Shown here one piece after another: positions 1,168-51,845 of a stretch of 64,000 nucleotides of DNA. The notes beneath the pieces are model-generated. The model had not been told where the DNA came from. It saw only the letters and a list, made by a program, of their open reading frames with translations, and did not search any database. The stretch is from Phoronis australis. Its lineage: Eukaryota; Animalia; Phoronida. Positions within the stretch are counted from its first letter, which is position 1. Every line of letters starts with the position of its first letter. The position numbers and the translations under genes are program-made. The stretch is from NCBI GenBank assembly GCA_002633005.1, contig NMRA01000822.1:1-64000 (forward strand), written 5' to 3'.

Positions 1168-3568
1168 TAAAATACAGTCTAAATTTGATCAAATCATAAA
1201 ATACAGTCTAAATTTGATCAAATCATAAAATACAGTCTAAATTTGATCAAATCATAAAATACAGTCTAAATTTGATCAAATCATAAAATACAGTCTAAAT
1301 TTGATCAAATCATAAAATACAGTCTAAATTTGATCAAATCATAAAATACAGTCTAAATTTGATCAAATCATAAAATACAGTCTAAATTTGATCAAATCAT
1401 AAAATACAGTCTAAATTTGATCAAATCATAAAATACAGTCTAAATTTGATCAAATCATAAAATACAGTCTAAATTTGATCAAATCATAAAATACAGTCTA
1501 AATTTGATCAAATCATAAAATACAGTCTAAATTTGATCAAATCATAAAATACAGTCTAAATTTGATCAAATCATAAAATACAGTCTAAATTTGATCAAAT
1601 CATAAAATACAGTCTAAATTTGATCAAATCATAAAATACAGTCTAAATTTGATCAAATCATAAAATACAGTCTAAATTTGATCAAATCATAAAATACAGT
1701 CTAAATTTGATCAAATCATAAAATACAGTCTAAATTTGATCAAATCATAAAATACAGTCTAAATTTGATCAAATCATAAAATACAGTCTAAATTTGATCA
1801 AATCATAAAATACAGTCTAAATTTGATCAAATCATAAAATACAGTCTAAATTTGATCAAATCATAAAATACAGTCTAAATTTGATCAAATCATAAAATAC
1901 AGTCTAAATTTGATCAAATCATAAAATACAGTCTAAATTTGATCAAATCATAAAATACAGTCTAAATTTGATCAAATCATAAAATACAGTCTAAATTTGA
2001 TCAAATCATAAAATACAGTCTAAATTTGATCAAATCATAAAATACAGTCTAAATTTGATCAAATCATAAAATACAGTCTAAATTTGATCAAATCATAAAA
2101 TACAGTCTAAATTTGATCAAATCATAAAATACAGTCTAAATTTGATCAAATCATAAAATACAGTCTAAATTTGATCAAATCATAAAATACAGTCTAAATT
2201 TGATCAAATCATAAAATACAGTCTAAATTTGATCAAATCATAAAATACAGTCTAAATTTGATCAAATCATAAAATACAGTCTAAATTTGATCAAATCATA
2301 AAATACAGTCTAAATTTGATCAAATCATAAAATACAGTCTAAATTTGATCAAATCATAAAATACAGTCTAAATTTGATCAAATCATAAAATACAGTCTAA
2401 ATTTGATCAAATCATAAAATACAGTCTAAATTTGATCAAATCATAAAATACAGTCTAAATTTGATCAAATCATAAAATACAGTCTAAATTTGATCAAATC
2501 ATAAAATACAGTCTAAATTTGATCAAATCATAAAATACAGTCTAAATTTGATCAAATCATAAAATACAGTCTAAATTTGATCAAATCATAAAATACAGTC
2601 TAAATTTGATCAAATCATAAAATACAGTCTAAATTTGATCAAATCATAAAATACAGTCTAAATTTGATCAAATCATAAAATACAGTCTAAATTTGATCAA
2701 ATCATAAAATACAGTCTAAATTTGATCAAATCATAAAATACAGTCTAAATTTGATCAAATCATAAAATACAGTCTAAATTTGATCAAATCATAAAATACA
2801 GTCTAAATTTGATCAAATCATAAAATACAGTCTAAATTTGATCAAATCATAAAATACAGTCTAAATTTGATCAAATCATAAAATACAGTCTAAATTTGAT
2901 CAAATCATAAAATACAGTCTAAATTTGATCAAATCATAAAATACAGTCTAAATTTGATCAAATCATAAAATACAGTCTAAATTTGATCAAATCATAAAAT
3001 ACAGTCTAAATTTGATCAAATCATAAAATACAGTCTAAATTTGATCAAATCATAAAATACAGTCTAAATTTGATCAAATCATAAAATACAGTCTAAATTT
3101 GATCAAATCATAAAATACAGTCTAAATTTGATCAAATCATAAAATACAGTCTAAATTTGATCAAATCATAAAATACAGTCTAAATTTGATCAAATCATAA
3201 AATACAGTCTAAATTTGATCAAATCATAAAATACAGTCTAAATTTGATCAAATCATAAAATACAGTCTAAATTTGATCAAATCATAAAATACAGTCTAAA
3301 TTTGATCAAATCATAAAATACAGTCTAAATTTGATCAAATCATAAAATACAGTCTAAATTTGATCAAATCATAAAATACAGTCTAAATTTGATCAAATCA
3401 TAAAATACAGTCTAAATTTGATCAAATCATAAAATACAGTCTAAATTTGATCAAATCATAAAATACAGTCTAAATTTGATCAAATCATAAAATACAGTCT
3501 AAATTTGATCAAATCATAAAATACAGTCTAAATTTGATCAAATCATAAAATACAGTCTAAATTTGATC
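1168..3568. repeat. 29-bp tandem satellite, about 83 apparently identical copies, ending at an N
   Basis: Unit AAAATACAGTCTAAATTTGATCAAATCAT, no spacers; contains the 12-bp palindrome ATTTGATCAAAT; truncated by N at 3569. Confidence 0.98.
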
Positions 3569-3570
3569 NC

Positions 3571-5927: not shown

Positions 5928-7257
5928 CTGTGCATGAATTTGGAATCCTGCTTAATCTCAAGATTAAGCGGAAGTGAGTGTTGCGTGAACTTGGAATTCA
6001 ATATTCTTTAAGGCAAAAGGGTGAAATTTTTGTTCGGTGAAAAGAATTTTTGTAATTATTGGCCTTGCGATCAACCATTTTCTCCTTTACCGTAACTTGT
6101 GTCGCCGAACCGGAGGAATATGTGAATGGCTAAATAGATTATTGTTTGGTGAAACTGCATCGCCTGTAGGCAATGACCATCGCCTCTGTTGGCCCGAAGC
6201 AGAGGCGACGTAGAGGCTATAGGCGCTCAGTACGCCGGAAGCTTTTCGGCGAATTATGCCTCGCACCGACTAAACCATCAAAGTCACGTTGTTATAAATA
6301 CCTTTTCGCATAGAGGAACACCTTAGGAGGTTGTCGATGTGATTAATTCCTTCCAATTCGAACAAATACTCCCGTTATGAAACTTTTTCTTCGAGCAGTC
6401 CCTATTTCAGTTCCCAAAATCGTGAACTCACCATTTTTATACTGCGCACGCTCCAATTCATGACCTCAATCTTTAAATAGGCCAAAGGTGAGCCATTGCG
6501 GTCTTGTCAGTCAAATGTTCGTTTCCAAAATGCCACCACTTATACTTGTCTTTAATTGGCGTTACTTGAAACTGATTGTATTTCAATGAATCATTGTTTG
6601 TATTTGATAAAAATAAATGCTGTTGATATGACATTTAATAGTCTTTGTGCACATATTTGACATTTTAATGTTTAACAACACGGCAAATGCACGGCTGGTT
6701 CCCGGCAGCACGTACGCGAAGGGCGGGAACTTCAGCTTTCAAAGTTCGCCGGTAGGTCCGCAACTTCTGACCTTCGGCCTGGTTAAAAAAATGAAAAAGT
6801 TGATTTCACGATTTTGGGAACTGAAATAGGGACTGCTCGAAGAAAAAGTTTCATAACGGGAGTATTTGTTCGAGTTGGAAGGAATTAAACTTGAACACAT
6901 CGACAACCTCATAAGGTGTTCCTCTATGCGCAAAAGGTATTTGTAACAACGTGACTTTGATGGTTTAGTCGGTGCGAGGCATAATTCGCCGAAAAGCTTC
7001 CGGCGTACAGAGCGCCTATAACCTCTACATCGCCTCTGCTTCGGGCCAACAGAGGCGATGGTCATTGCCTACATCGCCTGTAGCTGAAAAGGTTGGTTAA
7101 AATTGACATTATTTTATTCACACGTAACTTGATTTAGTGCAGTGCAGATTTTTATGAACACGAACCTGATTATTAGAGGGAACTTGTCAAGTTGCCTCGC
7201 GTATTCAAAGTTCATGCAACACTCACTCCCGAAGCAGGATTCCAAGTTCACGTACAG
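5928..7257. mobile_element. MITE-like element, copy 2, interrupted by a nested insertion
   Basis: Ends CTGTGCATGAATTTGGAATCCTGCTT ... AAGCAGGATTCCAAGTTCACGTACAG; 5928-6166 plus 7081-7257 is colinear with copy 1. Confidence 0.7.
6167..7071. mobile_element. Non-autonomous Mutator/MULE-like foldback element, 905 bp
   Basis: About 260-bp terminal inverted repeats (TAGGCAATGACCATCGCC ... GGCGATGGTCATTGCCTA) and a perfect 9-bp TSD CATCGCCTG at 6158-6166 and 7072-7080. Long TIRs with a 9-bp TSD are typical of MULEs. Confidence 0.85.
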
Positions 7258-15200: not shown

Positions 15201-17464
15201 TTAATTTTCTGTTCTGTCATGGATTTTATTAGTATTTTCTTGTTGATGATGTATTTTGTCCCTTCCGTTGTGTCCTAGAGATTTTCTCGGCTGAGGCCTG
15301 GCATACAGGGGGCAGGAAGGCGACTAGTCAGGGGACGTGAATTTTAGTCAATATTAGTGACTGCATGCTGATGTTGGGATGACCAACGGACTCGTTAGGG
15401 AAGCCTATGGAACTGTTTTAACATTAAAATGACTGAAAACTAGGAAGAACACCATATTCATTAGTACCAGTCGACAATACGTACGCGTTTAGTTTTTTTG
15501 TACGTGATCACTTCAATGTATTCTCTTACTTAGATCCGGTCAGGCTTCCTCAAGCGGGTTTTGACGTAAAACCTGACATTATGCTAGTTGTAAATTTATA
15601 ACACGAAAAACAATACCACGAGACCATTCCAGCTTTTAATAATTAGTTTTCTTCCTTGAGCTAACTGATGGTCTTGTCACCTAAAGACGTAGTATACAGG
15701 AACAGCGACCGTCAGAGGGCACCACCTGACGGCGATGCAATAACCCGGGAGAGGTACATAATTATTAATTTTTGAATTTGACTGCAGTTATTTGCAGTTA
15801 TTTGTTAGAAGCATCGGTAGCAAGCGGGTTGGCTCGGATTCCTGCTGTGGTTATAGTTGGTACAATGAATCTCGCTTTCCTTGCACCTGCAAGGAGTTGT
15901 GTAGGCTATAACTCGATTTCCAAGCACTTTCTTTGAACACACATTTGGAAAATCGCCAGAGCAATATGAGTCATTGCTACAAATAAAAGCGCGTGACGCT
16001 GTTAGCGCAGACAACGAAGGTATTTGATAGCAGTCGGACGTGTCGACCGAGCTCTCTGTTCAGCGTTAGGCGGGAAACTGCTGACACTCGTTTCGTTTCA
16101 GTAAGTTTACGCTATCACTAATCTGAAATGAAAGTTTGTAAAGATTAAGTTTGAATCATGTTATCATCCACGATACTGGTTTAAGCCGCACCGATCTTGA
16201 GACTTCTATTTTGGAATCAACTGAGGAACAATGTTGCAGAGGAACGCGTACGCGTTGCCCCTAGGTGTTGTATAGGCATATATAGAAATGTTTGTTGAAG
16301 AATGCTGTCAAGGTTTTTGAAAAGTACTGTAGAATGTTCCTTTCGGAGTTGTATATCGTGTATAACAATGTCTTTTGATAAACGAAGTAAGAGTGTGAAT
16401 TTCATGTGTTGCGTCTTTCTACATGGGTCATGGTAGACCCTATTAATTTTGTACTTTAATAAGTAACTAGTACATGTAAGCCTACTTGTGACAACTTGTG
16501 TTAATGTTGTTTTCTTGTCCTATTTTCCTGTACCGATGCATAGTAAACATTTTATTTAGTTGCTTACTTTTTAAGCCTTATTACAAACTAGCTAGCGTTG
16601 GTGTAAAGCTGTTTGTCTTCATAGTGCTAGTTGTCTTGGTGGCTAGCTGTAACTCTGTGTTCATTTCCTTCCAACTCAAACACATTTTTTTTCAAATCCA
16701 AGGAATATTACAGAGTACCCCAGAAGTGACTGAACAAATTTACGTGCAAATTAAAGATATTACACTTTCTGCACTGTTCTTCAAAATACTGTTAGGTATT
16801 GATTTAAAATGTTCCACTTTTGCATCAGGGACTGTCAAAAATAGGGCGGATTTTAGTGAAAAAATCAAAGTTACATCTAACGAAAAGGAATTGATAATTT
16901 AGAAAATAACTATGACAAAGATTTTGAGATTTTATTTGTAGCATTTACATCATACTAAATTTAATCATGTAATTGATCTCGTGGTTTTGCTTTGAATGCA
17001 CTTCCCTTTTGTTCAAAATTTTACGATAACAGCATACTAATCACTTGAGCTTATTAATGGGAGGTTGGTTTAAAGTCAGCTACTAACTTCTAGGTAAATT
17101 CTGCTTTCAGAAAAAATATACTTTCGCTGAGAGTTAAGTTCTATAGTTGTACATATATTTTGCTAAGTGTACAGATTTGTCAATAAGGTCGTATATAACC
17201 TTAAAATGGTTGTTGTTAAACGTTAATAAGAAGGAATACAAAAAGCAGTCGACGTTTTGCTCTGATAAAAAACCGCAGAAGTTGAATTTGAATTAACTTG
17301 CCTAGGACTATTTTAGTTCCATGTACCACGAAGTAAATGACTTTTGATAAGGATAAGCCCCAGTTTAATGTCTATCGGTTATCAAAGGTTAGTTCATTGA
17401 AAAAACACCGGTATGATGCTGAAATATGTCTTGAGTGATTAAAATTATTTTCTGTCTGCAGGAC

Positions 17465-19258
17465 ATGGCGTCGAACGATCCAGTTGTCCAGCTACGTCGA
17501 CTGGTAGAGTGCCCCGTGTGTTTTGAACGATCCAGTGACCAGAGGGTTTTGCCATGTCTTCACTCATTCTGCGAAAAATGCTTGAACAGTCACATGGCAG
17601 AACAGGGGCAAAGTGGTGAATTTCCATGTCCACTGTGCAAAACAAAATTTGCTGTTCCAAGAGAAGGTGCTAGTGGCTTCAAGCATAATTTTTTTCATGC
17701 CGGTATCTGTGACATTGTTTCGAATTATGACAGCATGAATAAAATGCATTGTTCAGCTCATGAAGACCGGCTTTTGGAAATGTACTGTGAACAGTGCAAG
17801 GTGGCCATATGTTCACGATGCGCAACTTCAAGTCATAAGCGACACGATCTGAAAGATTTAGACGTTGCTGCAAAAGACGCCATTGAGGTGATGCAAGATT
17901 TGTTGAAACCTTGGCGAGATGTTACGCAGCACTGGGAAATGTTGCGCAATAAACGACAGCAAGTTGCACAAAGTTATGCCCAGCAACAAAAAGCTTGTAA
18001 GAATGAGATAAAACGTGTATACAGCGATTTCCTGGCAGAGATCACTCGTCAAGTCAAAGTTAATGAAGAGAAAGCTATTGCTGAGTTGGAAAAACAAGTA
18101 GAGGCGGCAAGAAAACAGGCAGAAGCTGCTTGTGATGAGGCTGAACTGAACAGGGCGAAGTTTGCTAGCGTATATGATTATGTAAATAATGTTCTTGAGT
18201 CGTGTCATGACAATGAGAAACTGCAACAATTTAATGAGATTAAGTCTCTTCTTAAAAACTTGAATATTGATCAAATCCAGAAGCGGGTTGAAAAATCAGT
18301 CTTTGAAATACAACCTGCGACAATTGCAGTTCCAAATGTAGCTGTGAATATTATGAGAAAAATGGAAGACGAAAATATTTCATCCAATTTTTTTGAAAAT
18401 TTTGCCTCAGTTGTTGCAGTTTCCAGTAAATCACCTGTCCACCGTGTGACCCCTCAACTGACTGTTAAACATGTTCAACTTGAGCGGAGATTTAGCAGTC
18501 TGCTTGAGGGGGAGGGGGGAGGCAGTTGTTTGGGACTGGCAGTGGGTGATGGGGTGGTGGTTGTAACGGACAGTAAGAACAAGAATGTCAAGGTGTTTGA
18601 TAAAAACACCTTGACATTCAAATTCACGTTAAACACCGCCCAGCACCAACTGCAGAACCCTTCTGATGTGACATGTAATAGACTTGGTGAGATCTTCATC
18701 ACCGACCGCGACATTCACGGTGTTGTCAAGTATGACGCCAGAGGTCAACTGGTGAAGGCCTACCCAGGTGTGTATAAAGGTGAGGGGTGTATTACATGTC
18801 ACACCGACCAGCTGATAGTGACGGATACACAGGGTGGACGGGTGTTATACAGTGACTTTGATTGTGAGGTCCATCATCAAATAGACGCCCGCTCCCTGGG
18901 TCTGAGTGAGTTCTCACCATACTATATATGTGTGGATGAGAACACTGGACATGTGGTGGTGAGCCAGGACTACCCCCCACGTGTGTACGTGATTGACCCC
19001 AGACAGCCGGCCGTTATACACACATTCAGTGATGGACTGTGTGTGCCGTGCGGTGTGTGTGTGGATCAGTTCGGCCACATTCTCCTGGCTGACTGGGGCA
19101 TGTTCAAACACTGTATCCATCTATTGACCCCTGCACGTGCACACGTGATCGCCACGAAGGATGATGTCTGCAGGCCTACAGCCATATGTCCATCACGCCC
19201 AGGGAAGATGTATGTACTGGAGCAGGGAGGTGGTGTGAAGGAGTTTAGTTATCTGTGA
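17465..19258 (+). CDS. TRIM-NHL family E3 ubiquitin ligase (RING, B-box2, coiled coil, NHL beta-propeller), 597 aa, single coding exon
   Basis: RING CPVC..CLHSFCEKC..CPLC; B-box CSAH..YCEQC..ICSRC..HKRH; heptad-rich helical region; NHL repeats (GLAVGDG-VVVTD, PSDVTCN-GEIFITD, PCGVCVDQFGHILLAD). Acceptor tttctgtctgcAG at 17460-17461 just before GACATGG, so the real start is ATG 17465, not GTG 17435. Confidence 0.93.
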   Translation: MASNDPVVQLRRLVECPVCFERSSDQRVLPCLHSFCEKCLNSHMAEQGQSGEFPCPLCKTKFAVPREGASGFKHNFFHAGICDIVSNYDSMNKMHCSAHEDRLLEMYCEQCKVAICSRCATSSHKRHDLKDLDVAAKDAIEVMQDLLKPWRDVTQHWEMLRNKRQQVAQSYAQQQKACKNEIKRVYSDFLAEITRQVKVNEEKAIAELEKQVEAARKQAEAACDEAELNRAKFASVYDYVNNVLESCHDNEKLQQFNEIKSLLKNLNIDQIQKRVEKSVFEIQPATIAVPNVAVNIMRKMEDENISSNFFENFASVVAVSSKSPVHRVTPQLTVKHVQLERRFSSLLEGEGGGSCLGLAVGDGVVVVTDSKNKNVKVFDKNTLTFKFTLNTAQHQLQNPSDVTCNRLGEIFITDRDIHGVVKYDARGQLVKAYPGVYKGEGCITCHTDQLIVTDTQGGRVLYSDFDCEVHHQIDARSLGLSEFSPYYICVDENTGHVVVSQDYPPRVYVIDPRQPAVIHTFSDGLCVPCGVCVDQFGHILLADWGMFKHCIHLLTPARAHVIATKDDVCRPTAICPSRPGKMYVLEQGGGVKEFSYL

Positions 19259-19620: not shown

Positions 19621-21659
19621 AAAGACTGTGCGCTGTTCTCAATTTTCAATACCAAAATTCTATTCAGGACGTCAATAACATTATCATATTTCTACAATAT
19701 GAAATAAATGTGATCATAGTGTTCTCAACCGTGCAATTAACATTTTTATGACTTGAAATAGTCGTATTAATGCAATATATCAAATTTGTTAGTGATTACT
19801 TAGTCCTCGTTTTAATTGAAATTGTCGCTCTAAAAATTCTTCATCAATATTATTGCACACGTAATATTTCATTATCGTCAAAACAAAACATTGGTTAAAG
19901 GGACGTTATCATTTTCACGGCCGAAAAACGCAAGTTTGGGATTGAGTGGGATAAAATTTTTGAACGGTTTGATTCGTGATTTTATTACAAATCTCAATTG
20001 CCGCCGTTATTTTTCACACATCAGCTGAAGTGAATTACTGTGACTTCACCGGTGAAGTACGCTTGAAGTACTCTCCCACATGGGCCTACTGATGCTGGGA
20101 TTTAACGCAGCTAACGAAACTTCTGACTGCGGCGCAAGAATTTGTTAAGTTCGATTCCGAGCTGGGGCTGATCTCGGAAAGTGATTCTCCTTGACTGTAG
20201 TGTTGCGTTGGTCGTTCACGTGATCAAATAAACTGAAACCAAAAAGAACTATATTGATTTCAGGAACAGTGTCGTATCCTTGCACATGAAGTCACACCAT
20301 TAAATCAACAACGAAAAATTGCTCATTCACGCCCTTTATCGACTGATTGAAAACAATCGAATTTTGGACGTCAGACTAAGTGTGATAATCTCGGTTGGAA
20401 TGGGTGGCGTGGACAGCACACAAAATTAATGTGAAGTTTTGTTTAAATGGCCATCACATATGTGCGAGTTGTCTTTGGTTTGCATTTTTAGAGAAAAAAT
20501 CGTTTAATATTACACAATATAACTTTATTGAAAAGACCACCATCCTTTGTTTTTATTCACAGCCCGAAGATGGCGCGTTATCATCGAGTTCAACCACAAA
20601 AGATTGTGCGCTGTTCTCTATTTTCAATACCAAAATTCTATTCACGACGTCAATAACATTATCATATTTCTACATTATGAAATAGCTGTGATATTAGTGT
20701 TCTCATGTGTGCAATTAACATTTTTCTAACTTAAAATAGTCCGCATTAATGCAACATATTAAGATTGCTAGTTTTTGGTATTCTAATTGGAATTATTGAT
20801 TAAACGGTGCATTCGTGGATTAAACTGCGATTACATAGTGCTCGTTTTAATTGAAATTGTCGCTCTTATAGTCAGTATTATTGCATACTTGAGATTTTCA
20901 TTACCGCCGAAACAAAATACATTGGTTAAAGGGACGTTATCATTTTCACGACCGAAAAACGCCAGCTTGAGATTGAGTGGAATAAAATTTTTGAACTTAC
21001 AAGCTTTTAACAGAGCTAAACAAACCCCAAACTATTCGTTGTGTTGTGCGATTTTACTACAAATCTCCAATTACCGCCGTTATTTGCCAGGCATACGCTG
21101 AAATCAAGTTCTGTGATTTCACCAGTGAAAGTACGCTTGAAATACTCCCCACATATTGATGCTGGTATTAAGCGCAGGTAACAAAACGTTTCCTTGCGAC
21201 GAAAAAATTTGTTGAGGCTGATCTCGGAAAGTAATTTTTCTCAACTATAGTGTCACGTTGGTCGTTCACGTGATCAATGAAACTGAAACCGAAAAGAATT
21301 ATTTTGATTTCAATAACAGTGTTGTATCTTGCACATGAAGTCACACCACTAAATTAAAGAAAAACTTTTTATTCACGCTCTTTATAGATTGATTGAAAAC
21401 AATCGATTTTTGTATGTCAGTCTAAGTACGTAAAGATAATCTCGGTTGGTATGCGCAGTGCAGACAACACACAAAATTAATGGAATCCGTTATTAAAATT
21501 GCCATTACATATTTGTGAGTTGTCTTTGATTAACATTTTTCAGAGAAAAAATCATATAATATGATATAATATAACTTTATTGACAATGCTAATGCCACCG
21601 TCCCTTGTGTACATTATTCACAGCCCGAATATGGCGCGTTATCATCAGGTACAACCATA
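19621..21659. repeat. Diverged tandem duplication of a non-coding unit of about 1 kb (19621-20598 and 20599-21659)
   Basis: Both units begin AAAGA(C/T)TGTGCGCTGTTCTC..TTTTCAATACCAAAATTCTATTCA and end ATGGCGCGTTATCATC...CAACCA; colinear throughout with many substitutions and indels. Confidence 0.9.
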
Positions 21660-24600
21660 AAAATAACACATCAGAGTGTACGTCTTTTTGAAAACGAGAG
21701 ATAAATGGCTAATTTCCAAACCTTACGTACAGATATAGTTACGAAACTTTTCCTTATTTACAAGCCTAGAAAAATACCGTACTTTGCTCTCAAACCAGCG
21801 TATGCAGGACAGTCGAGTAAAAATGAATTTCATTCTTCAACTACTCTTGTAGAACATGTTGTACACAAACGCTCTTCGCTTAGGTTTCTCTCATATTCGA
21901 TTTTCACTGAATGGTTTACAGATCTAAATATAGCCTGTAACTGACAAGTTTACTAAAGATGACACTTTTTTTCATGCTATAGCTGAGAATCAATACCTAA
22001 AGATCTCCTTTAGGCTTGGCTTTGATTTGAGACGGGTTGAATTCTTTACTGCGCTCTGTTCGTTAAAATACTCTGTAAACTAACTCTGAGCGAATCGGTT
22101 ACTTTTTGAGTGCAACATCTTTGTTGTAATGATTTTTAAGATTATGCCCTAGAGATTTTGTAATATTCATATAGTTATAACGAGAAATCAGTCAGTTCGA
22201 GAGTTCGAGCTTCCGTCAGCAAGTGAATGTGCTGGCCCCCGGGTCAGTGAGCTGAATATGAGATCACATCCACATAGCGCCGCAAATCTGGGCCAATGGG
22301 TGAGCGTGTATTTCGAACGCTGGTCAGTTGTCAACATGCGTAATTTGTATTGGACATCTAAAGGATCAAAAGCTTAAGCACAACTTTCGAATGAAATTAC
22401 TCTAAAATTAATGACAATAAAGACAACCATTCATTTTAATATCAATTATTTTTTTTCACATACACGTTCGCTTTGAATTTGTTTTTAAATGAGATGCTTG
22501 TTACTCGTTCGCTTCAGCGTCGTCGTAATTATAAGAGAAGTTTTAAATGTTTTCGTGAACAATTGCCAACAGTTACACAATTCAATGTTTGCTTATGAAC
22601 TGAATATTAAGGCCAACTAAATAGTTGAATTAAAATAAGAACGAGAAAAAATCCATTACTGAAACGATGCAGTTACAACTCATCAATTTATACTGTTGAC
22701 CCGCGGGACACTTGGCCGACATTGGAGTCCTGGCGTTCACTCCGTAGACATACCTGTAGTTTCTTGCTAGAAGAGCGATAGCATTCAAGACATTGCGAGT
22801 TTTCGTCAGGTATTGCAAGCAAACAAGCTAAACAGATGTGTCATTTTCTGCCGCACGAATGAACTTTCCCAAAAATCATAGCATAAATAATCTAAATAGA
22901 GCATGGTAATCAACAAAAGACAGTAGTACCCTCTACACATAGTTAAACCTCATAATGATTGCAGTTAAAACCATAGATCTTAATCTTAGTTTGCCAACTT
23001 TTTTATATGCTTCCTTAGTTGTGTGACGAAACGGGTCACTGCACAGAGTAAACCTGTGTATAAACCAGCGTTTCAAGATGAAGTTGAGTTTGAGCCGAGT
23101 TAAAAAGGAAACGCGTGGTGTACTGCGTAAACGTGAGCCTACGTCCTACTACGTCAAGGCGCACCGTGTGGCGGTTTCGACAGTTCTTTATAGGTGGGCC
23201 CAGGTGAGAAAATGCACCGTCTACAGTGTTATTTGCCGCATATTGTGAATGTGATATCTCAAATTTGCCGGGACAGTGTACACGTTATGAATAACAAAAC
23301 AGAATTTAGTAAAGAAAAGTATCGATATGCTTTTTATCCTCCTCGAAACAAAAAAGAACGCTTTGGCACAAACTCAATTTAATGGCCTAGTTTCAACTGA
23401 ACATGTTTAGTCACCCATTCTATCTCCAATTGCATATGGGATAATTGTTTGTTCATTCATTACACAGGGTTAAACATGATACAAAGAAGCTTTACGAGAT
23501 CTAAACAATTCTACTCTCCCAATTTGTAAAACTCTACACATGTTACATTTTCAGGATACATTTACATTATCTTGCTTAAAGTGTAACTACAAAATAAAAA
23601 CATAATGCTCCCTATATACTTTCACAACAAGGAATTCATCCAAGAATATCGGCCACTTCGAGAAAACACGTGCAGAACAACACCATTACAATCTCCCAGT
23701 TACATGTACGTTAGTAATAATACAAATAACCGACCATCATACACTGTGCTTCCAGCGGAAAAAACAAACATCAACACAAAAGAGATTGTTTTACCATTTC
23801 TTTTGAATAAGTGCAATTTCTTAGAATTAGTTTTGAATAAAACAATAACTCGTTCCTTATTAGGTTTTAATCTCAAAAATATTCTATGAACAACTATGAT
23901 GAAAATTGCCATGTCGTAAATTTTTATGTTCGAATGTTTAGAGATTCTGTGTTGCCGATGGTCATCTCTAATGATTCTTGCTTGGGATTGTGTCTTTCAG
24001 TACTCTAAATAAACACATTTTTTCTATGAATTCATGTTGCACATATCACTAATAATTATCTCTAGTAACCAGCCTTTAGCAGTTTATACCTTGGTTGGTA
24101 ACGAAATCAAGTTGTACAAAATATGCCATATAAACGGAAAGAAATTAATATATACACATACGATAGCAGTCATTATTGTATTCTTGTTTTGTATATACAC
24201 TCTTTCATATTTCTTTTGTACAAATACGCCCATTCAACACAACTCTACTGCGTACACAATAGTTTTAGTGTCGTAGTTGCAACTTACGGAACTTGAACCC
24301 CAACAGGCAAGAGTGATCCGGCTGGGGGTCCGGGTCGGATTCAATTTCAAGATTTCCGTCTTCACCAAATCCTTTTCAGTGCAGTATATACTAGTTGCAC
24401 TTACACAAAAAAGAAAAAGCGTCACTTGACGTTTCTGCAGGTTTACCCAAAGCCGTTTAAACAGGGACGACAAGACATACATTTGACGGATGTTTGGCAC
24501 TGGTGTTTTCAGCAAGACTTTCTGACATTATGGCAGTCGTTCTAGATATCCTAAANTGTTCCCTCGTTGAGACTGTGCTGCGACTCATAATATCCATAAT

Positions 24601-39900: not shown

Positions 39901-41411
39901 CGTACCCAGACTAAACCACGGTCAGCATCGAAAAGGAAAAACACTAAAGGTTGCACCGTGAAATAGTATCGGCAAATCAGAACGGAGAAGTCCTTAAAAT
40001 GACCAATTTTTTTCGACTAAAAGCTTTCACCACTATAGTGCTTTTGGGGCAGCAAACTGATCAACACCCTTTGTGCAAATATGTTGCGAGCCGAAGAAGT
40101 GACGATATCGATACCACCCACTCCAGGTTATGAGCTGCTTCAGATGTCAACAACTTCCTGGACACCATCTCTTCCAGCACATCCCACGTGGTGTCAGTAC
40201 TCAACCAGAAACACGACTTGAACAACGTAACTATCAGCGTAGGCAATCTGAACATACTCTTCTTGATGTCGCGAACAGTCTCGACTGGCTTGTGGAAATT
40301 TAAAATTGGACCAAATTCCATAATTATTTCTAATAATTCTCTGAACGCTTTGAGTCTGACGCGGATATCGACTTTTGCTGATGCCCGAAAGGAGGTGAAC
40401 TTGTGTGCAAGCTCGTCTGCTTCACTACTTCCGCCAATCTTTACAACTGACGTCATGATACGATCAAAGTTATAACCCTCTTTCAGCGCAGTGTTATATT
40501 CACACAGCTGTGCCATACGCTGAGGTGTCCGGATCAGTTCACGACCTACCTTGGTTGGCCTGTCCGGTCGACCGAGAGGTGTGTTACACGCGTAAGGCGC
40601 GGCGCTGTCGAACTGAAACCCACGAACTGCAACACAGTCTATAAACCAGTTCCCATCTTCGGTGTCGTAGTCATTCAAGGATTTGATGGCCAGTGATTTA
40701 AGCAGAGTTTCCTGGATGTTCAATACGAACAAATGGACCAATCTTGCCAAATTTCTAAAATAAGCTGTGTCTTTTGATTCATCTTCTACGAGAATAGCCC
40801 ATTCGATATCCGAGAAAGGAGTCGTGTCTCCTCTCGCTAACGAACCTAGTCCTATAGCCGCGTATTCCTGGGGTGGTGTGCCAAGGATGTTTTCACTCTC
40901 AGAGATTAGATATCGAAAAAAGTCCGCCATATCGGCACTTGTTTGAGCAAAAATCGTACGCGATTTTTCATTGAATGTCTTTTCTGTAGATACCCTTTCG
41001 GTATCACTTACGTCGAGACTATAACTACTTTTGATTTCTTCCAATGATTTATCAACTGTAGCACAAGTCGTGTCTCGTATCCTGGCTAGCCTAGTCTTAA
41101 CGTCAGATTTGTAATCTAATGATGTTTTCCCCGGCTCAATAGAAAGAACCTTACAAAAAGCCAACTCAGTATTCTTTAAGTGCCCTTCAATCTCAGTCGC
41201 TAACTCAGGCGAGTGTGCTCTTAAAAGAGCAGCGTTAATGAGTGCTGACGATTTTACAAAGTTGTCCAAGTCTTTCGTCAGATACCACGCTCACAATAGA
41301 CCATTCCCATCTCCTTTAATAACTCAGCGTCTCTCTTCAGGTCATTACGTGACCCTTCCTTCAACGAGTCCGCCAGTTCTTGTTCCCTTTGATCCAGCTT
41401 CGAAATGCATT
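36908..41411 (-). pseudogene. Disrupted paralog of the nucleotidyltransferase (DUF294-like)-TPR gene, main exon (about 1450-1500 codons if repaired)
   Basis: ORFs 40061-41269, 39522-39956, 38935-39525 and 36908-39010 are colinear with the 1130-aa ORF. Lesions relative to the intact copy: 1-bp deletion at about 41281, 10-bp deletion at about 40064, in-frame TAG at 40017-40019, frameshift at about 38990. Acceptor ttttAG at 41412-41413 is at the same position as in the paralog. Confidence 0.85.
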
Positions 41412-42440
41412 CTAAAATCAGAGGAAAACGGCTGTTATGAAGATATTGCTACAGAATTATGTACGCTGATTTGGTTATTTTTATCAACTACTGAACAGTT
41501 CACACAAACAGCTTTACAACATAGCCGACGATACTTAGCACTTAATTTCGGAAAAATCTATTTAATTTTCGTTTGCTCAAAGCCACTCCTTCAGAAGATC
41601 ACTGCACGTGCATTGAGAGACAACCATTCTGCTTTTTGAAGGTTTGTTCTGCCGTTCCGCCACACCATCAAAATGTCGGGCCAGTCCTTGACACGAGGGG
41701 AAATTTACTCATTTTCCACGCAATCCAAAATGAAAACACCATCGGTGCGCATTTGGGTGTTCCGCCTGGCATTTCTATCACAGACCCAGGTGTCTAGCTA
41801 AACTTTTAGATTTCTACATGTTCAATCTAGGTTCCAGTCTTGATCATTTTACATGTTAGTAACTATGCATCTCGGGGAAGCCACTACCGTCATGGCTATA
41901 AGCGAATGTTTATTGGCCGCATGGATTTGATGAGCATTACCTGTAAATATTATTGTTTGCTGGGTATTGCTGGTTTACTGGTGTTCTTTACGATCACGAG
42001 ACACTTGGTTATGACCAAGGTAAAATTTTGGCCGGCAACAGAAATAAGTGGTTACCTTTGTATAATTCACGCCTACTACTGGATTACGTCAAGATCGTTA
42101 TGTCAGCGTTCACAAAGACTGGCAAAACGCCAATGGCTGGTTAGTCATGATCGAATAACCTCAAACTGTCATATTGCAAAAGGCATTGTCAGTATGCATA
42201 GGCGGATTTAGGGGGGCTTGCAGGGGGCCGCCCCCCCCTTCCTTGGCTGCCGCAAGAAAATAAAAAAGGAAGAGCGTGAGGAAACATTGAGTTCATTAAG
42301 CAACGCAGGTACCTAACTTACGGCTGAAAGGGGGCTCAACCAGCGCAATCGTTTCCCTTCTAGCAGTTTTTTTTTTCAAGCGATATGCAACCCACGAACG
42401 TTGAACGTTATTTACTCGGTAATACAATGTCTAGACTTAC

Positions 42441-42465
42441 CATCGTTTTGAATGTCTCCCGACAT
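42441..42465 (-). pseudogene. First coding exon of the disrupted NTase-TPR copy (MSGDIQND plus 1 nt)
   Basis: GACGACACA-ATG, 25 nt, then GTAAGT donor; phase 1 matches the acceptor at 41411; homologous to 56681-56705. Confidence 0.8.
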
Positions 42466-45029
42466 TGTGTCGTCTGTTTTCTTAGTTTCACCAGATGTTT
42501 GGAATCATTAACTGGAAGGAAAACATATATTCGTTAATTAGTTAAACGGAAATCATGACACCTGGGCAAGGGTACCTCATGATACAGTTATTCAAAAAGG
42601 AACAGTGTGCAACTTAGCGGCAATTGAACACATATTTGTCTCGGTAAAATTACAAAAAATAAGAATAATAAAAGAAAATTTTCAATATTGAAATAACCAT
42701 GCAAATTATGTCAAAGCTTCGAATGGTAAGAAAATTATCACAAATGGCCTTGTTTACGAAATATATGCCTACACCGAAACCCTGCTAGAGTCTGGAGTCG
42801 ATGTCAAAAAATTTAATGTCAAATCCAATGGATGCCAGTGGCTCACTTTAAACACTGTCATCATCTATGTACTGTGTGGCAATGTAGAGATGTTCGTTAA
42901 AACTCCTGCCTTGTCATTGCGACTAGGCGTGTATTAACAAAGCCACGAAGTGCTAAGAGTTCAGTGGCGGACTTAGAGGGGGACCAAGAGGGCCATGCCT
43001 CCCATAAAATATTCTCCCTAATTCCATTTGGCAGTTCGGGAGTGCGAATGTCTGACGATTAGAACCCAATATTATTATATTGTATTCTATTAGAGCCCAT
43101 TATGTATTATATTGTATTCTGTCCACTCAATGTTATTCTGGTACACCAGAAAACTATGTCGATGGTGACTGTTATCACCAAAAATTCTTCCCATCAAATT
43201 TCATCTATACTTTTGGAATATCTTGCGGACTAATGAACACAACCATTGTCAGGCGCCAGGGTGAAACCATGGCAAAAGGCACATGCGTAGGGCTGGCGAC
43301 AGTGGAGAAAAGGAAGACACCATAAAACTATAAGTCAATAACCAGAGCTAGCAGCCTTTGCGAGTCCCAGCCACTAAGACATTTTTTGTTAGAGTGGGGA
43401 ATGAAGGGAAATTCTTGCAGTATGAATGGCATGAGTGCACTTAAGAACTTGCACTTATGAGTGCACTTAAGAACTTGCACTTAATCAAACACATTTCGAA
43501 ACGTCTGATAAAACTTGTTACATGAACAGATTTTCAAAATCATAATCACTCCAACTTTTAAAGCCAATAAGGCAATGTATTTTCCCGGCAGGTCTCCTCT
43601 GCAATGAATAATGTTGTCATCTGCCGCTCTTTTCTCTTTCGTTTTTTCAAACTCTGTATCACTTCAATGTATATATGCGGAGCCTGACGGAGAAGGTCCT
43701 TGGTGATACCATCAATTGCTGCTCATTTCTTGTTGTAGTGGAATGATAAGTAGCGCCCCCAGCTTTGATGACACCCATTTCCACCGTTATTCTGTTCTTT
43801 ATTCACATCCTTTCCACTTAAGGGCAGTTCACGTAAGAAAGTTATGATATAATGCTTTCTAGCACATTCTGCACGTAAATCTACTTTTCTTAATGGACAT
43901 TAAAATGGAAACTGTTTGCCCATATTTTTTTCAGAAATCGTACACGCTTTTATGATGAAGCTACTACAAACCCTCTCACCGTGATTCTGGTCTTGACTCG
44001 TTCCACTTCCTCTAGTAAATAAAAATACCCCTGTTTCCAAACAGACTCGTTCACTTACCTGTCAGATAATGCTTCGAGATTAGTCAGTTAGTCACTTGTG
44101 ACGGAAGTTTATTAATTAACTTCTACGTTAAAAATCACTTACACAGAGCAACCAGTATCTCAAGGCCGTCATTGAACTCACCTAGCATAAGTTTGAAAGT
44201 GACAATCGATGATGGGTGTTTATGTAGGGGAAGGTAGGGGGTTGTCGCTTTTGTCTCAATGCAATGAAGGGGCATTTCAGTGATGTTGGAAGGAATAAGC
44301 TTCGATTTCAGTCTAGGCGTGATCGAAGTATTTCCTTTTGTTTTCGTTATTTCTTTGTGTTATTGCTGTTTATTATATTCTTTACTTAAATATTTTATGA
44401 CTGTGTATACACTGGAGGTAATGATTCGTTTTCTCGGCTAATTCTATTTACCGTAATCTTACATTGTCTCATACTTGTGTTGCAGTATTGACCCCACTCG
44501 TGTGCACATGGATGTCTTTGACGCATGCGCATGCCCTCCCGCTCATATGCGTTATAAGTTGCAATCTTAATCGTTCACATTATATCTTGTTCAACCCGGA
44601 TTTTTGCCCAAGAGCACGGTTATGACGGATCGTAATTCTTCCCCGGGTTCGTAAGTCCTGGCTATTTCCAACTAAGACTTCCTGTTTTGTATTATAATGA
44701 ATGGATAATTCGCGGGTGACTTGTCCGGCTAGGCCAACCATGTGTTCATAATTTGTGATGTTATTTTTTATTTTTAAAGTCAATTGGATAGATATGTCTT
44801 CCAAAACTAATTTTTCTGTATACAGAAAAAGCAATAACAATTCCGGTAATGCCTTATCGTCTTAGCGCATTTGCTCAGTGACAAACTGTTTTAAGCCGAG
44901 TAAGACAACAACATGAGTAGGAAAGTGGGACACAGCGAAATAGCTCTAGATAAGTGGTAGTAAATGCATGTAATACTTTAGACCGTGGAATTAAGATTTA
45001 TTGTGGGTTGTTTCTCAACGGATTCAGAA

Positions 45030-45490
45030 GCTACGTCGATCTGGCTAGTCTTCAGACTCTGTACAAGAGCGTAATTGTACCTCCTTTTTGTTACTGTGAT
45101 GTTATGTGGGGTAACTGTGCAGGATAGACTTCAAAAATTACAAAACAAGACTTTTATAATGATTTTCCTATATCTGACCGCCTCGATACACTTTGTTGGC
45201 TGGCGCGCCTTTCATTTAAACTTGATGGTGTCCAATGCCAAGCATAGCCTTACTCCTGATTACCTCACTACATTCAAAACAGTCAGATATTCTTACATTT
45301 ACAATACTAGAGCCAGTGTATTAAACTGCCTGGTGCCAAAGACCTAAAAACAATTATTGCAGCAAAAGAGCTTTTGCCGCAGAGGCGCTCTCGCTCACAA
45401 CGTGCTTGGAATTGCCGTCACGAACGCGCCCAATGCCAACGTCTTCAAACAGAAATACTGGGAATTTGCGCGCGGAGCAGGACTGTAGGC
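45030..45490 (+). mobile_element. Degenerate 3' fragment of a CR1/L2-type LINE ORF2
   Basis: Across frameshifts reads YCDVMWGNC / DRLQKLQNK...PDYL..F...YNTRAS....VPK...KRAFAA.G, a typical LINE ORF2 C-terminus. Confidence 0.6.
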
Positions 45491-47672
45491 CTCAGCTCAT
45501 CATTATTTTACTTTATTTAATCTTATTTATTCACCTGATTGCACATATCTGATAAGGATGTATAAGTTATATACTTATTTAACTTTTCAATGTAATTGTG
45601 AGAAGCTCTGTGTATTTCAAACCCCCGCTCCAGGTCCTCGACCCCTTTCCGATGTCTTGGGTCTGTTTCAAATTTCCTGAGGCTCCCACGCAAGATTGTG
45701 TCAAGTGCACCCTTGGGATGAAAATACACTTCACAATCGATAAGGTGTATAGTTGTTATGGTGAATAAATAGCTTAGGTTACTCTATACACAGGTAGATA
45801 ATAGTTTCACTGTTGTTACCACATGCCCGTACCTAAGGAGTAACACCAGTGCCCGACGTAACAGGGGGGTGTGACCTGGGCCTCCCTGCAGGCTTGTCAT
45901 GGCGCGCCAAAGGGATTTCAGGGGCGCCCAAACCCGTTTGTGCGCCCCAGGACGAGTAACACTTCGGTGTTGCAATCGACCGTTGCGTTGTGAGTCAGTG
46001 ATGTTTACTTGGTATTTTCTTTGTTTTATTTGTTCAACTTTGGGTCTTGCTGAAGGTTCTCCCCTGGTCCCACCATAAATCCACCTATGTTACTCGTTAA
46101 TGTTTCGCCATTGACTGTGCGAGTGAGACTCCCGTGAAAAGTACCCTCCAACAAACGTCAAAGGTGGGGTCAAACTTAACGAGGGTCACTTTTCCACGAG
46201 AGAAGGGTCGGTATTGAACTGGCAATTTCAACATTAAAAGTTGTCACTTATCTGCTGAAAAAATGACCCCGGTCATTTATTCAAAGGAGTCGAAACTTAA
46301 TGTTACAACGACACTCCACAGTTGGCGTTATTGATAGTTATGTTTTGACACAGGTATAAGGTACTTTAAGGTAGAGTTCTGTAAGCGTTAAAAATATCGA
46401 TAAGCAAGCGATACTGTGATCGCTTGCTTCGTTTGTAATATCTGGCAATTTTCTCTTGAAATCTTGTGTGTTCTCGCGTCTTACTCATAACGGTGTGATT
46501 AGTGAATATTCTACTTCCAGCGTAGTGCTCAGCGACTCATCGTCAGCGATAATCCTTTTGAAAATGCTTCTTTTGGATGAGTTAAAATTTTACTGACAAT
46601 TTGTTTCGATAGAAACATTTGTTTGTAAGATAACGAAGGTCAAAACTGGCGCATGAGATGGGTACTATAGGACGTATATATGTAATATTGAACTATCTGA
46701 GTTCGTGGTCTAATCCTTGTACTGAAAATCAAACTCGGAATGAATTTTGAAATTTTACATTCTACTATAATATTCAAAGTGAAGAAAAATTTGTATTATT
46801 CAGTGCATGGCTTTGTTATCGTTTACGCTGATAAATTATCTATCCATTCTACTCATTGATGACGCCTAGATTAGAGCTAAAAACTCGAGTAAAACTTGAG
46901 ACTGCTGGTAAAAGCTCGATTTTTTTTAGTTCAGAATCTAAATCATAGTGTTAATAATAGGGTCATCAAGTGCAAGCCAGGATTAGAAAAATGGGTCATT
47001 TTCGTGAACCATAGTGTACTGCAGCATAGAATAACAGACATTTATCCTGAATTCAAATAAAAGTAAATGAAACAGGCAAAAAAATAATTTCGACTTCAAG
47101 CACAATAATTAAACTGCGGGCCCAGACCTGAGTGTGCTTGTAAATATCGCAGGTTCTTGTTTGCGGTGATGTTTGTTTTTACTGAGATGTACATAGAAAT
47201 GAAGGTAAAAAGTTGCACATTTAATTACCCATCTTTCTGGAGGGTATTAATTTTCCTTATTATCTTTGATAAGTAAGAATCATTAGTCTTCATACACGCC
47301 ACCTGTAGGTCACTTATAGCTACATATATGTCTGGAAAGATTTCTGCTCCGACCATGGTTCATCCTTTTTCTTTGTGCTATTTAGTCATAATAAACAATA
47401 TGACCTTATTTTCCCAACATTGATCTCGTTTTCTTTACTGCGTCTTTAATCTTTGAGATACATAGGTAAATCATAAAAGACAACTGGTATACATGTAATG
47501 GCATAAAACAATACAACAAGAATAGGAACTAAATAAAACTGAAAAATCGAGATTTGAAAATGGACAGTAACAGCAGGACTTCCCGGTCATTACTTGGACC
47601 TTCAGGCACACCATTCTATAGTGAGTGGATGCAAGTCAACTTTCGTGAAATGCAATTATAGCCTTATCCAGT

Positions 47673-50600
47673 CTATCTCACTACGCTTGCCGTACCCGAA
47701 CGCCCCCGATTTCGTATTTTACACTGCACGCGATTCAGTCTGTGTCTGCTTGCAAGGCACTCTGGGTGGCTCTGGTCACCGTGAAGTCTCTGTCTCATAT
47801 TTAGCGCATCTGTGTGAAACGTCACGGCCAAGTCAAGCTGACCTAACCTAGCACGAGCCATTCCAAGATTATTCAGTGTTATAGCAATTCCTAGGTGGTC
47901 GCGTTCGCCAAGGAGTCTGCGTTTCACTTTCAGCGAGTCCATCAAGAATTGACAGGCGCGTTCCTCACGTTTCATCATGATGTACACCGCTCCAATATTG
48001 GTCAAGCATATTCCAATCAAATTATCACATAATCCACGCTCCATTCTTGCCAACTTCAGGGCACGTTTAAGCTTGCCCATTGCTTTTTTTTGCCTTCTAA
48101 TCTTGGCGTATATAATCGCGATTTCCAGGGTATATTTAGCGGCATAAAAATTGTTTTTAGCAACTTCAACCTCCTGTATTGCTTGTTCGCCATACTTTAA
48201 GGCTGCATCCCACTCCTTCATAGCTACATGCACGTGCATGATGGCGTTTAAGCAAATCGAGATGTTCAGATTATTGCGACGTCTGTTTACACTTCGATGC
48301 ATTTCCAGCGATTCTCGTTGGTATGCTAGAGATTTCGTGTACTCTCCCATATCACAATATATTTTTCCGATATTCCACAGACTCACAGCAATACTTTGAG
48401 AACTATTATTGTGAAATTTTTGTTTCATTTCATGTGCCCTCAACTGATACCTCAAAGCTTGCTCTGCCTTTCCTAAAAAGCTCAAAGCTATGCCCACAAA
48501 ACACATGATATCAGCAACAATTACTGGATTAACGTTTTCATCCGTTAGTGCTTTTTCCAAGTCCAGTGGATTATTTGGGTATTGTACATTTGTGTATGGC
48601 CACAACCAGCCTTCGCTCCTGCTGCGCTCAATGAAGGCAACGCACGTGTCATAATCACTTAGTTCCCTCCTGAAAAGTTCTGTCCTTCCAATGCAACCCA
48701 TTAATGCTGCAATTTTCGGATGCTCTCTGGTATAAAATCTTTTCAGAATTTCCAGCTGTTGTGAAAAATAATCCAAAGACAAACCTGTAGCAAATAAGTT
48801 AAAGTACACAACAGCAATATTTTCAAACAGGGGCAACACGTCGGGATGAATACCCCTTCCGTGTAATCTTTTAGACATTTCTATTGCGTCTTTGCAGTAT
48901 CTTAGCGCTTCGCCAAAATCTCCCGCCGATATATAAATATTTCCCCTGGTGCCGATTATATACAGTATGTTAGGATTGTCACAGTCACCATATACTTTCC
49001 TTGCCATATTTAGCGCAGCATCAGAGTATTGAAGAGCTTTCCAAAATTCGCCTGTTTCTGAGTGCACTGTAGCAATATCATTCAGGACTACAAGAACATC
49101 TTCACAGTCTGCGTCTCCATGTAAAACTTTCAAGGAAGACAACGCCGCCATTAAGTATTTAAGAGCTTCGTCATACTTATGCAAGTTGAGATACAAACAT
49201 CCCACTAATACAACGCATTCAGACACTTTCTTTTCTCTACAGTGACAAGTTGAACACATCTCTAGCGCCAATTCCGAATATTTTAGCGCCAGGTCATACT
49301 CTCCTTCTAAACGATACGTCCAAGATATAACAATGAAGCACTCTTGAACTTCTTGATCTGTCACATCATACATCAACATTTCGTCTTTGTAGGTAAATTT
49401 CTTGATGTTTGTATTGGTGTCAACGTTAAGCTTCAAATCTTTGGTGACTAAATACCTAAAAAAGTAATCATGTGCTTTCTTGTAATGACAGCTGTTTAGC
49501 TCTATCATACCCCTTACGTGACAGCTGCTTTTATAGAAGCTACCTTCATGTATGGTCACTCTTGCACCATAAACCAGGTTAATAAAATCGACACTGCCAA
49601 TGAAATCACGCAAAGGAAGGATGGTGAAGTAATATCGGCTTATAAGAACGGTCAGGTTTTCAAAATGTGTGACACTCTCTCGACCTCCGGAATGTTTGTC
49701 TTGGGGCAGCAAGCTGATCAGCTCGTCCTGACATCGCTTCTTCAAGTATGTGTTGAGTCGAAGAAGTGCAGCAATAGATACTACACACATTAAGTTGTGT
49801 GCAGCTTTGCCAGGCAATATGTTTTTAGACGCCATCTCTTTCAGTATTTCCCAAGTCGTGCAAGCATTCAAAGCAAAACATGATTTAAACAAAGTAACGA
49901 CAAGTGTGGGCAACCTAAACATACTCTTCTTGATGTCACGAATTGTTTTTGTCGGCTTGTGGTAATTTAAGACTGGCAGAAACTCATAAAATGATTGCAA
50001 AATCTCGTCACATGCTTTCTTCCGCACACTGGTATTATTTTTGACTTGGGAACGAGCCAAGTTGAATTGTCTGACGAGTTCGTCTGCTCTGCAACTTCCA
50101 CAAATCTTTACAGTTGAAGTCATGATACGATCAATGTTATAACCCTCTTTCAGCGCAGTGTTATATTCACACAGCTGTGCCATACGCTGAGGTGTCCGGA
50201 TCAGTTCACGACCTTCCTTGGCTGGCCTGTCCGGGCGACCAAGAGGTGTATTACACGCGTAAGGCGCGGCGCTGTCGAACTGAAACCCACGAGCTGCAAC
50301 ACTGTCTATATACCAGTTCCCGTCTTTGGTGTCGTAGTCATTCAGGGATTTGATGGCCAGTGATTTAAGCAGAGTTTCCTGGATGTTCAATACAAACAAA
50401 TGGACCAATCTTGCCAAATTTTTAAAATAAGCTGTGTCTTTTGATTCGTCTTCTACGAGAATAGCCCACTCGATATCAGAAAAAGGAGTCATGTCTCCTC
50501 TAGCTAGCGACCCTAGTCCTAAGACAGCATATTCTTGTGGCGGTGTACCAAGAAGTGTAATACTTTTTGACACTAAGTCTTGAAAAAAATCACTCATGTG

Positions 50601-51079
50601 CGTACTTGAGCTGGCACATATCAACCTTGTTTTTTCAATGAATTCCTTTTCTGTAGAAATTCGTACAGAATCGCAAACATCGAGACTATAGTTGCTTTCG
50701 ATTTCATTCACAATTTTCTCAACTTCACCACGAACGGTTTTTCGTATTGTACTTATCTTACATTTTATTTCAGGACTGAAGTATAAAGGCGTTTTTTCAG
50801 GGGTGAGGGACAACACTTTGAAAAACGCCAATTCAGTTTTCTTTAACTGTTTTTTAAAATTACGCGTGCGTGTTTTGTTTGTTGTTCTCAACAAAGCAGC
50901 ATTGATGAGTGCTGAAGATTGCACAAACATGCCCAAGTCTTTCGTCAGCATACCACGCTCACAATAGACCTTTCCCATCTCTTTTAGTATCCCAGCATCC
51001 CTCTCCAGATCATCACGTGACCCATTCTTGAGCGAGTCCGCCAGAGCTTGCTCCCTTTCGTCCAAGGTCGAAAGCCCGT
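47673..51079 (-). CDS. Main exon of an intact nucleotidyltransferase (Pol-beta fold, GlnD/GlnE/DUF294-like) + DUF294_C-like helical domain + TPR-repeat protein; 1143 aa with exon 1
   Basis: Uninterrupted 3.4-kb frame; NTase signature YAVLGLGSLARGDMTPFSDIEWAILV (hGS..DhE); helical domain DIKK..FR.P....TTWEILKEM...AAHNL....LLRL; about 10-12 TPRs of roughly 42 aa (e.g. HLGIAITLNNLGMARARLGQLDLAVTFHTDALNMRQRLHG). Acceptor tttcAG at 51080-51081. Confidence 0.9.
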
Positions 51080-51845
51080 CTGAAACCCATGGGAAATGAT
51101 ATTAGGAACGCAATACGTCAACAAAATGTGGTAACATGATCGTGACTAACTTTTGTTAAACTGTTCAACAAAAACAGGATAAAACAAACCAACCGCTCTT
51201 CAAATACATTGGGATGAGTCGTTGGTTCATCGCCAGGTTCTGACATAGAACCAGAACAATTCCACCTCAAGACCCCAGTTCCGCCGGATGATGTGAATTC
51301 ACGATTTCTACAGCTTTATAGGAATGAGTTAAATAAAGGTTGGAAAATTGCATGTCGCCATGCAGCAGTAGGCATCGTAATGTTTCTGTGTCATAAAGCA
51401 CACCTTAACTGTGATTAGGTAAAACAAAATGCTATACACCTTCAATAGTCCGTTCAGTTAACAGAGGCAAAAGTTGGAACTACGTTAATCGGCATATTCT
51501 CAGACTACACGTTGGAAATGGGTAAATTAAAGATTTTCATGTTATACATTGCCAAACCTTCACTCGAAGATGTTTGACTGGGATGTCACCTTGGTGACTT
51601 GAGAAAATGTTATGCGCATGTTGCGTAAAGTCGACAAACAAACAATGAGCTTTACCCGACAACGTTTTGTTTGTCGGGTAAAATGGCGGCTTGGAAACGA
51701 GGGTGTGTCAGGCATGCCGCGTTCTGATTGGTCAGTTAAGCCGTCACTCAAAATCCTGGCGATAGGTCAATTGAGTACCAGCGTCAGTTTTTGTTAGAAT
51801 GCGATGATTCTAGACACAAATTTAATTTGCCTATTGTTTACTTCC

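Follow-up and report, generated by a model that had tools for sequence, protein, structure and literature searches.

Probable interlocus gene conversion of a catalytic-core block shared by two tandem DUF294–TPR genes of Phoronis australis

Two tandem genes and the block they share

The window analysed in this work is a 64,000-nt stretch of Phoronis australis DNA (contig NMRA01000822.1 of assembly GCA_002633005.1, positions 1 to 64,000 of the forward strand), which is animal-like in its GC content of about 40% and in its sparse open reading frames (ORFs). It contains two paralogous genes, copies A and B, both on the minus strand and placed in tandem with an offset of 9,667 bp (Table 1). In both copies Pfam detected a DUF294 domain above the gathering score followed by many TPR_12/TPR_10 repeats. 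The two genes share a block that is 94.5% identical at the nucleotide level, while the coding sequence on both sides of it is only 63.1% identical and the TPR regions can be aligned as protein only (28–33% identity), as the earlier note on this DNA had observed by eye. We consider that this block was probably copied by interlocus gene conversion.

Similarity was also looked for in the intergenic DNA around A and B and none was found; a tandem, same-strand pair without intergenic similarity indicates that the duplication is old. The possibility that A and B are mis-placed haplotypes of one locus was rejected because of the 63% identity of the flanks and the unrelated intergenic DNA. The similarity between the copies begins abruptly just past acceptor-like TTTCAG/TTTTAG motifs (51065–51101; 41397–41420). 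In copy B an acceptor-like TTTCAG stands just upstream of the ORF, in which the first in-frame ATG is codon 30. Judging from these features, both genes likely have a further exon upstream of the large one; a homology search for it with the N-terminal 330 residues of 10 homologues returned only a repeated helical motif already within the large exon.

Table 1. Coordinates of the two gene copies, the shared block and related features (positions in the window)
Feature	Position	Strand	Remarks
Copy A	36908–41397	minus	Architecture as copy B, TPR region longer; five disruptions in the window
Copy B	47673–51065	minus	Uninterrupted ORF, 1,130 codons; N-terminal helical region, DUF294 / GlnE-DrrA-like nucleotidyltransferase (predicted), C-terminal TPR repeats
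Near-identical block, copy A	40452–40854	minus	Codons 139–273 of the 402-codon ORF 40061–41269; 94.5% identical to B, dS 0.169
Near-identical block, copy B	50119–50521	minus	About residues 182–316
Second, weaker island	A 41284–41397; B 50952–51065	minus	5' end of large exon; 38 codons, pS 0.39, dN 0.127; adjoining flank pS 0.67
G185-X11-D197-X-E199 codons	B 50469–50513; A 40802–40846	minus	Nucleotidyltransferase signature
Third invariant acidic residue, D264	B 50274–50276; A 40607–40609	minus	
1-nt deletion in A relative to B	41281–41282	minus	Frameshift
10-nt deletion in A relative to B	40063/40064	minus	Frameshift
In-frame TAG in A	40019–40021	minus	
101-nt tandem duplication in A	39519–39720	minus	Two copies about 84% alike, length not a multiple of 3; single N at 39619 exactly at the junction
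Frame change in A	38985–39005 (approximate)	minus	Between reading frames 38935–39627 and 36908–39022
dS and dN, synonymous and non-synonymous divergence; pS, proportion of synonymous differences.

The alignment of copy A (41269–40064) with copy B was gap-free over 1,206 nt at a constant offset of +9667 and contained 318 differences. The ends of the block were set by a two-breakpoint likelihood search over this coding alignment, which assigned 22 differences to the block (403 nt) and 296 to the remaining 803 nt, with a log-likelihood ratio (LLR) of 81.8. When the positions of the differences were permuted, none of 500 permutations reached the observed LLR (79.6 on a coarser grid), the permutation maximum being 12.4. 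The block is thus a discrete segment of significantly raised identity between paralogues, as is expected of an interlocus gene conversion tract. Other block-like sequence was not found within the 64-kb window.

The earlier note had compared 40452–40810 with 50119–50477 and counted about 16 mismatches in about 359 nt. This count proved exact: 343 of the 359 columns were identical and 16 mismatched, with no gap. The perfect run that it put at roughly 78 nt measured 79 nt (40469–40547), the longest run that A and B share outside the block being 20 nt, and its translation of the segment (DIEW...DRIMT) was correct. The likelihood search extended the block about 44 nt further in the 5' direction, thereby including the Gly-Ser loop of the encoded protein.

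Divergence is not uniform within the block. The 3'-terminal 96 nt held a single difference, the middle 254 nt held 13 and the 5'-terminal 53 nt held 8, and the 3' edge was abrupt, with 14 differences in the 50 nt that follow the 96 nt holding only one. The GC content of the block was 0.469 in both copies, as compared with 0.431 (A) and 0.381 (B) in the flanks, and GC content at third codon positions (GC3) was 0.47, as compared with 0.44 and 0.37. This enrichment is in the direction expected of a conversion tract; it is a weak indication that could simply reflect composition. The second island of similarity at the 5' end of the large exon (Table 1) could be an older tract or an effect of constraint.

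Divergence at silent sites

The copies were also compared at silent sites, with dS and dN calculated by the Nei-Gojobori method. Third codon positions differed at 11 of 133 sites inside the block and at 141 of 269 outside it (LLR 45.9), and again none of 500 permutations reached the observed value (maximum 12.9). Inside the block, where 14 synonymous and 10 non-synonymous changes were counted, dS was 0.169 and dN 0.033. The 5' flank showed a dS of 1.65 and a dN of 0.38, and the 3' flank a dS of 2.07 and a dN of 0.31. The similarity of the two copies therefore does extend to synonymous sites, as had been proposed, and dS along the gene is far from the uniformity that the earlier note had named as speaking against its proposal: it is about ten-fold lower inside the block and saturated on both sides of it.

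Other parts of the same genes served as controls. Codons 330–352 encode a stretch as conserved in protein as the block (dN 0.058), yet its pS was 0.86. In codons 120–150, which lie just before the Gly-Ser loop and run into it, pS was 0.68 and dN 0.190, and in the conserved C-terminal TPRs (128 codons) pS was 0.74. The saturation of these stretches at silent sites indicates that protein-level selection lowers silent divergence nowhere else in these genes. Silent sites are thus homogenised in the block, while equally constrained stretches elsewhere are unaffected, which is the pattern expected of a conversion tract.

Catalytic core encoded by the block and other versions in the sample

We then asked what the block encodes. 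The Pfam scores for DUF294 were 26.8 bits in copy B and 27.7 bits in copy A, against a gathering score of 21. An alignment of 82 sequences, over a fragment that begins at residue 120, was made from both window copies and 80 of the 150 best representatives of a protein cluster search (those with one matched stretch and moderate length). Eight residues were invariant in 82 of 82 sequences (B numbering): G185, P194, S196, D197, E199, F214, D264 and I289. The G-X11-D-X-E loop and the third Asp all lie inside the block and are kept by both copies. A G-X11-[DE]-X-[DE] loop together with a third acidic residue is the defining motif of GlnE and DrrA.

A first AlphaFold model, of residues 1–470 of copy B and based on 25 sequences, had a mean predicted local distance difference test (pLDDT) score of 62.1, with values of 30–50 across about residues 183–323; a second model, based on the 82-sequence alignment, reached a pLDDT of 89.2 and a predicted template modelling (pTM) score of 0.88. 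Foldseek with the second model returned four matches only at E ≤ 0.001, all with a probability of 1.00. They were the AMPylation domain of Legionella DrrA (6yx5_B, E 1.4e-8, template modelling (TM) score 0.56) and both domains of Escherichia coli GlnE (1v4a and 3k7d, E 1.8e-6 to 3.4e-5). A sequence search against solved structures gave 0 matches at E ≤ 10. The DUF294 score, the motif and the fold similarity all agree with membership of the GlnE/DrrA type. On this evidence the block encodes the predicted catalytic core of a GlnE/DrrA-like nucleotidyltransferase fused to TPR repeats, and the products of A and B are predicted to be putative protein nucleotidyl (AMP/UMP) transferases with a TPR domain for partner binding or sensing.

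The nearest named relatives were uncharacterised Branchiostoma proteins with 24–29% identity over the whole length and 30–34% over the N-terminal module; one further named relative came from the tunicate Clavelina. The protein cluster search yielded 1,580 representatives at E ≤ 0.001, of which 313 reached E ≤ 1e-30, and none of the best 150 of the 1,580 exceeded 42% identity. The DUF294–TPR family is expanded in invertebrate chordates. A literature search on DUF294 gave no paper on animal genes among the matches listed, as seen from titles and the starts of abstracts, and no paper joining uridylyltransferase, amphioxus and TPR was found.

Both genes were also compared with DNA contigs from four runs of one sample. 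Copy A carries five disruptions in the window (Table 1), of which the 101-nt duplication repeats the segment just before the first TPR. Three of the five, namely the two small deletions (10 nt and 1 nt) and the TAG, are absent from an A-like version found in contigs of the sample. An insertion of 10 nt that is homologous to the sequence of B occurred at 40063 in four of four runs (depths with the insertion and in all 59.8/79.9, 10.1/10.1, 13.4/23.7 and 6.88/9.68, these being sums over contigs and not copy numbers). The TAG was replaced by CAG (G at 40019) in four of four runs as well, and the extra base at 41281 was found in two of four, the other two having no cover at this site. This version may represent either the second allele or an additional paralogue. 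The earlier note had argued that the involvement of a pseudogene speaks against protein-level selection as the whole explanation. The disruptions of A are indeed there in the window, but the contigs that lack three of them make this argument weak. The block has a dN/dS ratio of about 0.2, from which it seems that selection has acted on both copies, and so probably on A, during most of the period after the last exchange. Copy A is thus probably not simply a pseudogene.

Further versions were detected in the same contigs. A 532-nt contig of run X3 matched 50415–50946 with 53 differences from B (90% identical), over a region in which A and B differ at 167 positions (69%). Judged by this divergence it is a third, B-like family member or a very divergent allele, and it reaches across the block's 5' boundary. 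Contigs that differ by 6–9% from the TPR region of A were present in the sample too. In three of four runs contigs ran from position 37875 on to 38836, with the intervening 960 nt replaced by 18 other letters; such contigs point to length variation of the TPR array, that of A being about 314 codons shorter in them and still in frame. The family therefore includes further members or strongly diverged alleles, and the block may stem from a donor other than A or B.

Several other features of the window were recorded. Contig pile-ups with a summed word depth of up to about 10,000, as compared with 15–140 nearby, were seen at 36500–37000, 42011–43513 and 45017–45517; these regions are dispersed repeats or transposons that flank the two genes. 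Remnants resembling reverse transcriptase are found at 35878–36330 and 29966–30403 (zf-RVT match). The beginning of the window holds an array of 48-nt units at 149–442 (6.1 copies, 95% matches) and a perfect tandem array at 1168–3568, in which a 29-nt unit is repeated 82.8 times at 100% identity up to a single N (3569). An inverted repeat of 280 nt with 94% identity is formed by 6165–6438 and 7073–6794. A 607-codon ORF on the plus strand (17435–19258) with RING, B-box and NHL matches represents a TRIM-NHL-type gene, and it is followed by a local tandem duplication of about 1 kb (19621–20601 and 20599–21662, 78–88% identical). A gap of 410 Ns (28508–28917) is placed between 950-bp segments (27424–28370 and 28918–29866) that are 96.8% identical, an arrangement resembling a haplotype duplication around a scaffold gap.

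Interlocus gene conversion and its alternatives

The drop of dS within the block supports the proposal of the earlier note that gene conversion or recombination homogenised the enzyme module. We estimate at about 0.8 the probability that the block was copied by interlocus (non-allelic) gene conversion between these tandem paralogues 9,667 bp apart, most simply by direct exchange between A and B. It is the synonymous-site evidence alone that carries this inference. The module that was proposed to be homogenised has to be narrowed, as the low divergence covers about 134 codons around the active site and not the helical parts of the N-terminal module of about 450 residues, in which dN is 0.31–0.38 and dS is saturated. 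The process could have run as follows. A break in one copy would be repaired with the paralogous core as template, and the resulting tract, a few hundred bases long, would end where usable homology stops. The core, slow-evolving as protein, would retain enough nucleotide identity to be converted repeatedly, and the flanks and TPR repeats would escape conversion and diverge. The graded divergence inside the block would fit a nested series of events that differ in age better than a single event. As to the direction of conversion, none of the three indications available was decisive: of the 10 amino-acid positions at which the blocks differ, A had the family-majority residue at 3, B at 2 and neither copy at 5, the strong and weak alleles at the block differences split 10 to 9, and the GC3 of the block was nearer to that of the flanks of A.

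A number of observations weigh against conversion, or limit it. The comparison covered the A–B pair alone. The block is also the best-conserved protein segment in the family: in a profile of 23 of 25 homologues with matches (two, whose match ended before residue 440, were dropped) the mean frequency of the top residue was 0.84 in the block, as compared with 0.76 and 0.69 in the flanks. For 253 pairs of homologues the identity of the core exceeded that of the flanks by a mean of 0.154 and a maximum of 0.374, and the value for A–B, 0.370, lay at the top of this range. Part of the excess in protein identity is accordingly due to ordinary purifying selection, which does not explain the pattern at silent sites. 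With a dS of 0.17, the last exchange was not a recent one. Strand invasion would find no homology in flanks that are 63% identical, so that any event has to start and end inside the block. Finally, contigs of the sample cover both genes, and among the contigs listed none bridges a boundary of the block.

In a comparison of two sequences, and with the block coinciding with the most conserved part of the protein, a function at the nucleotide level could also have constrained the silent sites without any exchange, whether through RNA structure, an antisense product or an element of regulation or small-RNA targeting. We regard this as highly improbable. In Rfam there was one sub-threshold snoRNA match (sR22, 18 bits against a gathering score of 40, E 0.53), the folding energy was equal to that of shuffled sequences on both strands (z 0.01 and 0.22), and no antisense ORF of at least 100 codons spanned the block. 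In addition, the sharp step in divergence at the 3' edge resembles a breakpoint and not graded constraint. Hardly more credible is an artefact of assembly, gap filling or polishing, by which the core of one copy would have been built from reads of another. The assembly is scaffolded, with single Ns at 3569, 24556 and 39619 and the 410-N gap between the 97%-identical 950-bp duplicates, and the sample holds alternative versions of copy A, including indels at two of its frameshift sites. However, the 22 differences between the blocks mean that neither was copied from the other as assembled, and complete identity would be the likelier outcome of such an error. The shared runs of at most 20 nt outside the block are too short for a k-mer assembler to switch between the diverged copies, and 0.85 of the 31-letter words sampled from copy B are present in run X1.

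A different donor is an unlikely but more serious alternative, and one nested in gene conversion itself: the core of one or both copies would come from a third family member, the similarity of A and B would be indirect, and the core would evolve in concert across the family. The further related sequences in the sample, that is the X3 contig, the contigs resembling the TPR region of A and the A-like version lacking three disruptions, speak for it, but direct exchange between neighbours 9.7 kb apart is simpler.

Gene conversion between such neighbours is a known phenomenon, and the block represents a new instance of it in an unstudied gene family. Classic interlocus cases are RHD/RHCE, CYP21A2/CYP21A1P, the globins and the opsins. 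Interlocus gene conversion between tandem duplicates has been surveyed in Drosophila (PMC2588116). For human non-allelic conversion, tract lengths of typically a few hundred bp and a higher GC content of converted regions (48.9% versus 39.6%) are reported by Harpak et al. (bioRxiv 10.1101/135152); the block fits in both length and GC excess. Copies A and B resemble the surveyed tandem duplicates in being linked same-strand paralogues with an internal tract of low silent divergence, a few hundred bp long and GC-richer than its flanks. They differ in the saturation of the flanks (63%), in the unusual isolation of the island and in the tract being the catalytic core, and the case is known here from the A–B pair alone.

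Comparable families are found in other organisms. Sequence exchange in a clustered immune-receptor family is described for the plant NLR RPP8 (bioRxiv 10.1101/694240). Both families are multi-copy and join a conserved module to a variable repeat domain, and in A and B, too, paralogues would exchange sequence and alleles may differ in structure or be null; unlike RPP8, A and B have no NB-ARC or NACHT domain and the exchanged part is an enzyme core. An immune role for the A/B family would be a guess. With GlnE and DrrA/SidM the two copies share the DUF294 score, the predicted fold and the invariant G-X11-D-X-E loop, but they are animal-encoded, are fused to KLC-type TPR repeats and have no sequence-level match to solved structures. 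The NEX2 family of Neochlamydia is described as F-box – DUF294 – TPR and strongly expanded (PMC4209131), and an Atlas search returned a Chlamydiota DUF294+TPR cluster with a score of 0.82. Like NEX2, A and B have a DUF294 nucleotidyltransferase followed by C-terminal TPR repeats; the NEX2 proteins are, however, bacterial and carry N-terminal F-box or OTU domains.

A wider interpretation, which we find doubtful and offer as speculation, is that the block forms a self-sustaining conversion island at the core of a multi-copy family of animal GlnE/DrrA-like AMPylase–TPR proteins with polymorphic null alleles. Here the TPR arrays would diversify in sequence and length, the regime would be NLR-style in a new enzyme-linked class of sensors, and broken copies might act as donors or reservoirs.

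The tandem pair offers a clean and well-bounded example of probable gene conversion, in which dS drops about ten-fold within saturated flanks and the tract is the predicted active-site core. The less ordinary part is the gene family itself, a DUF294 domain with the predicted fold of bacterial protein AMPylases (GlnE, DrrA) fused to TPRs. If this is a true sensor–enzyme system, a homogenised core beside diverging repeats would be informative on how the family evolves.

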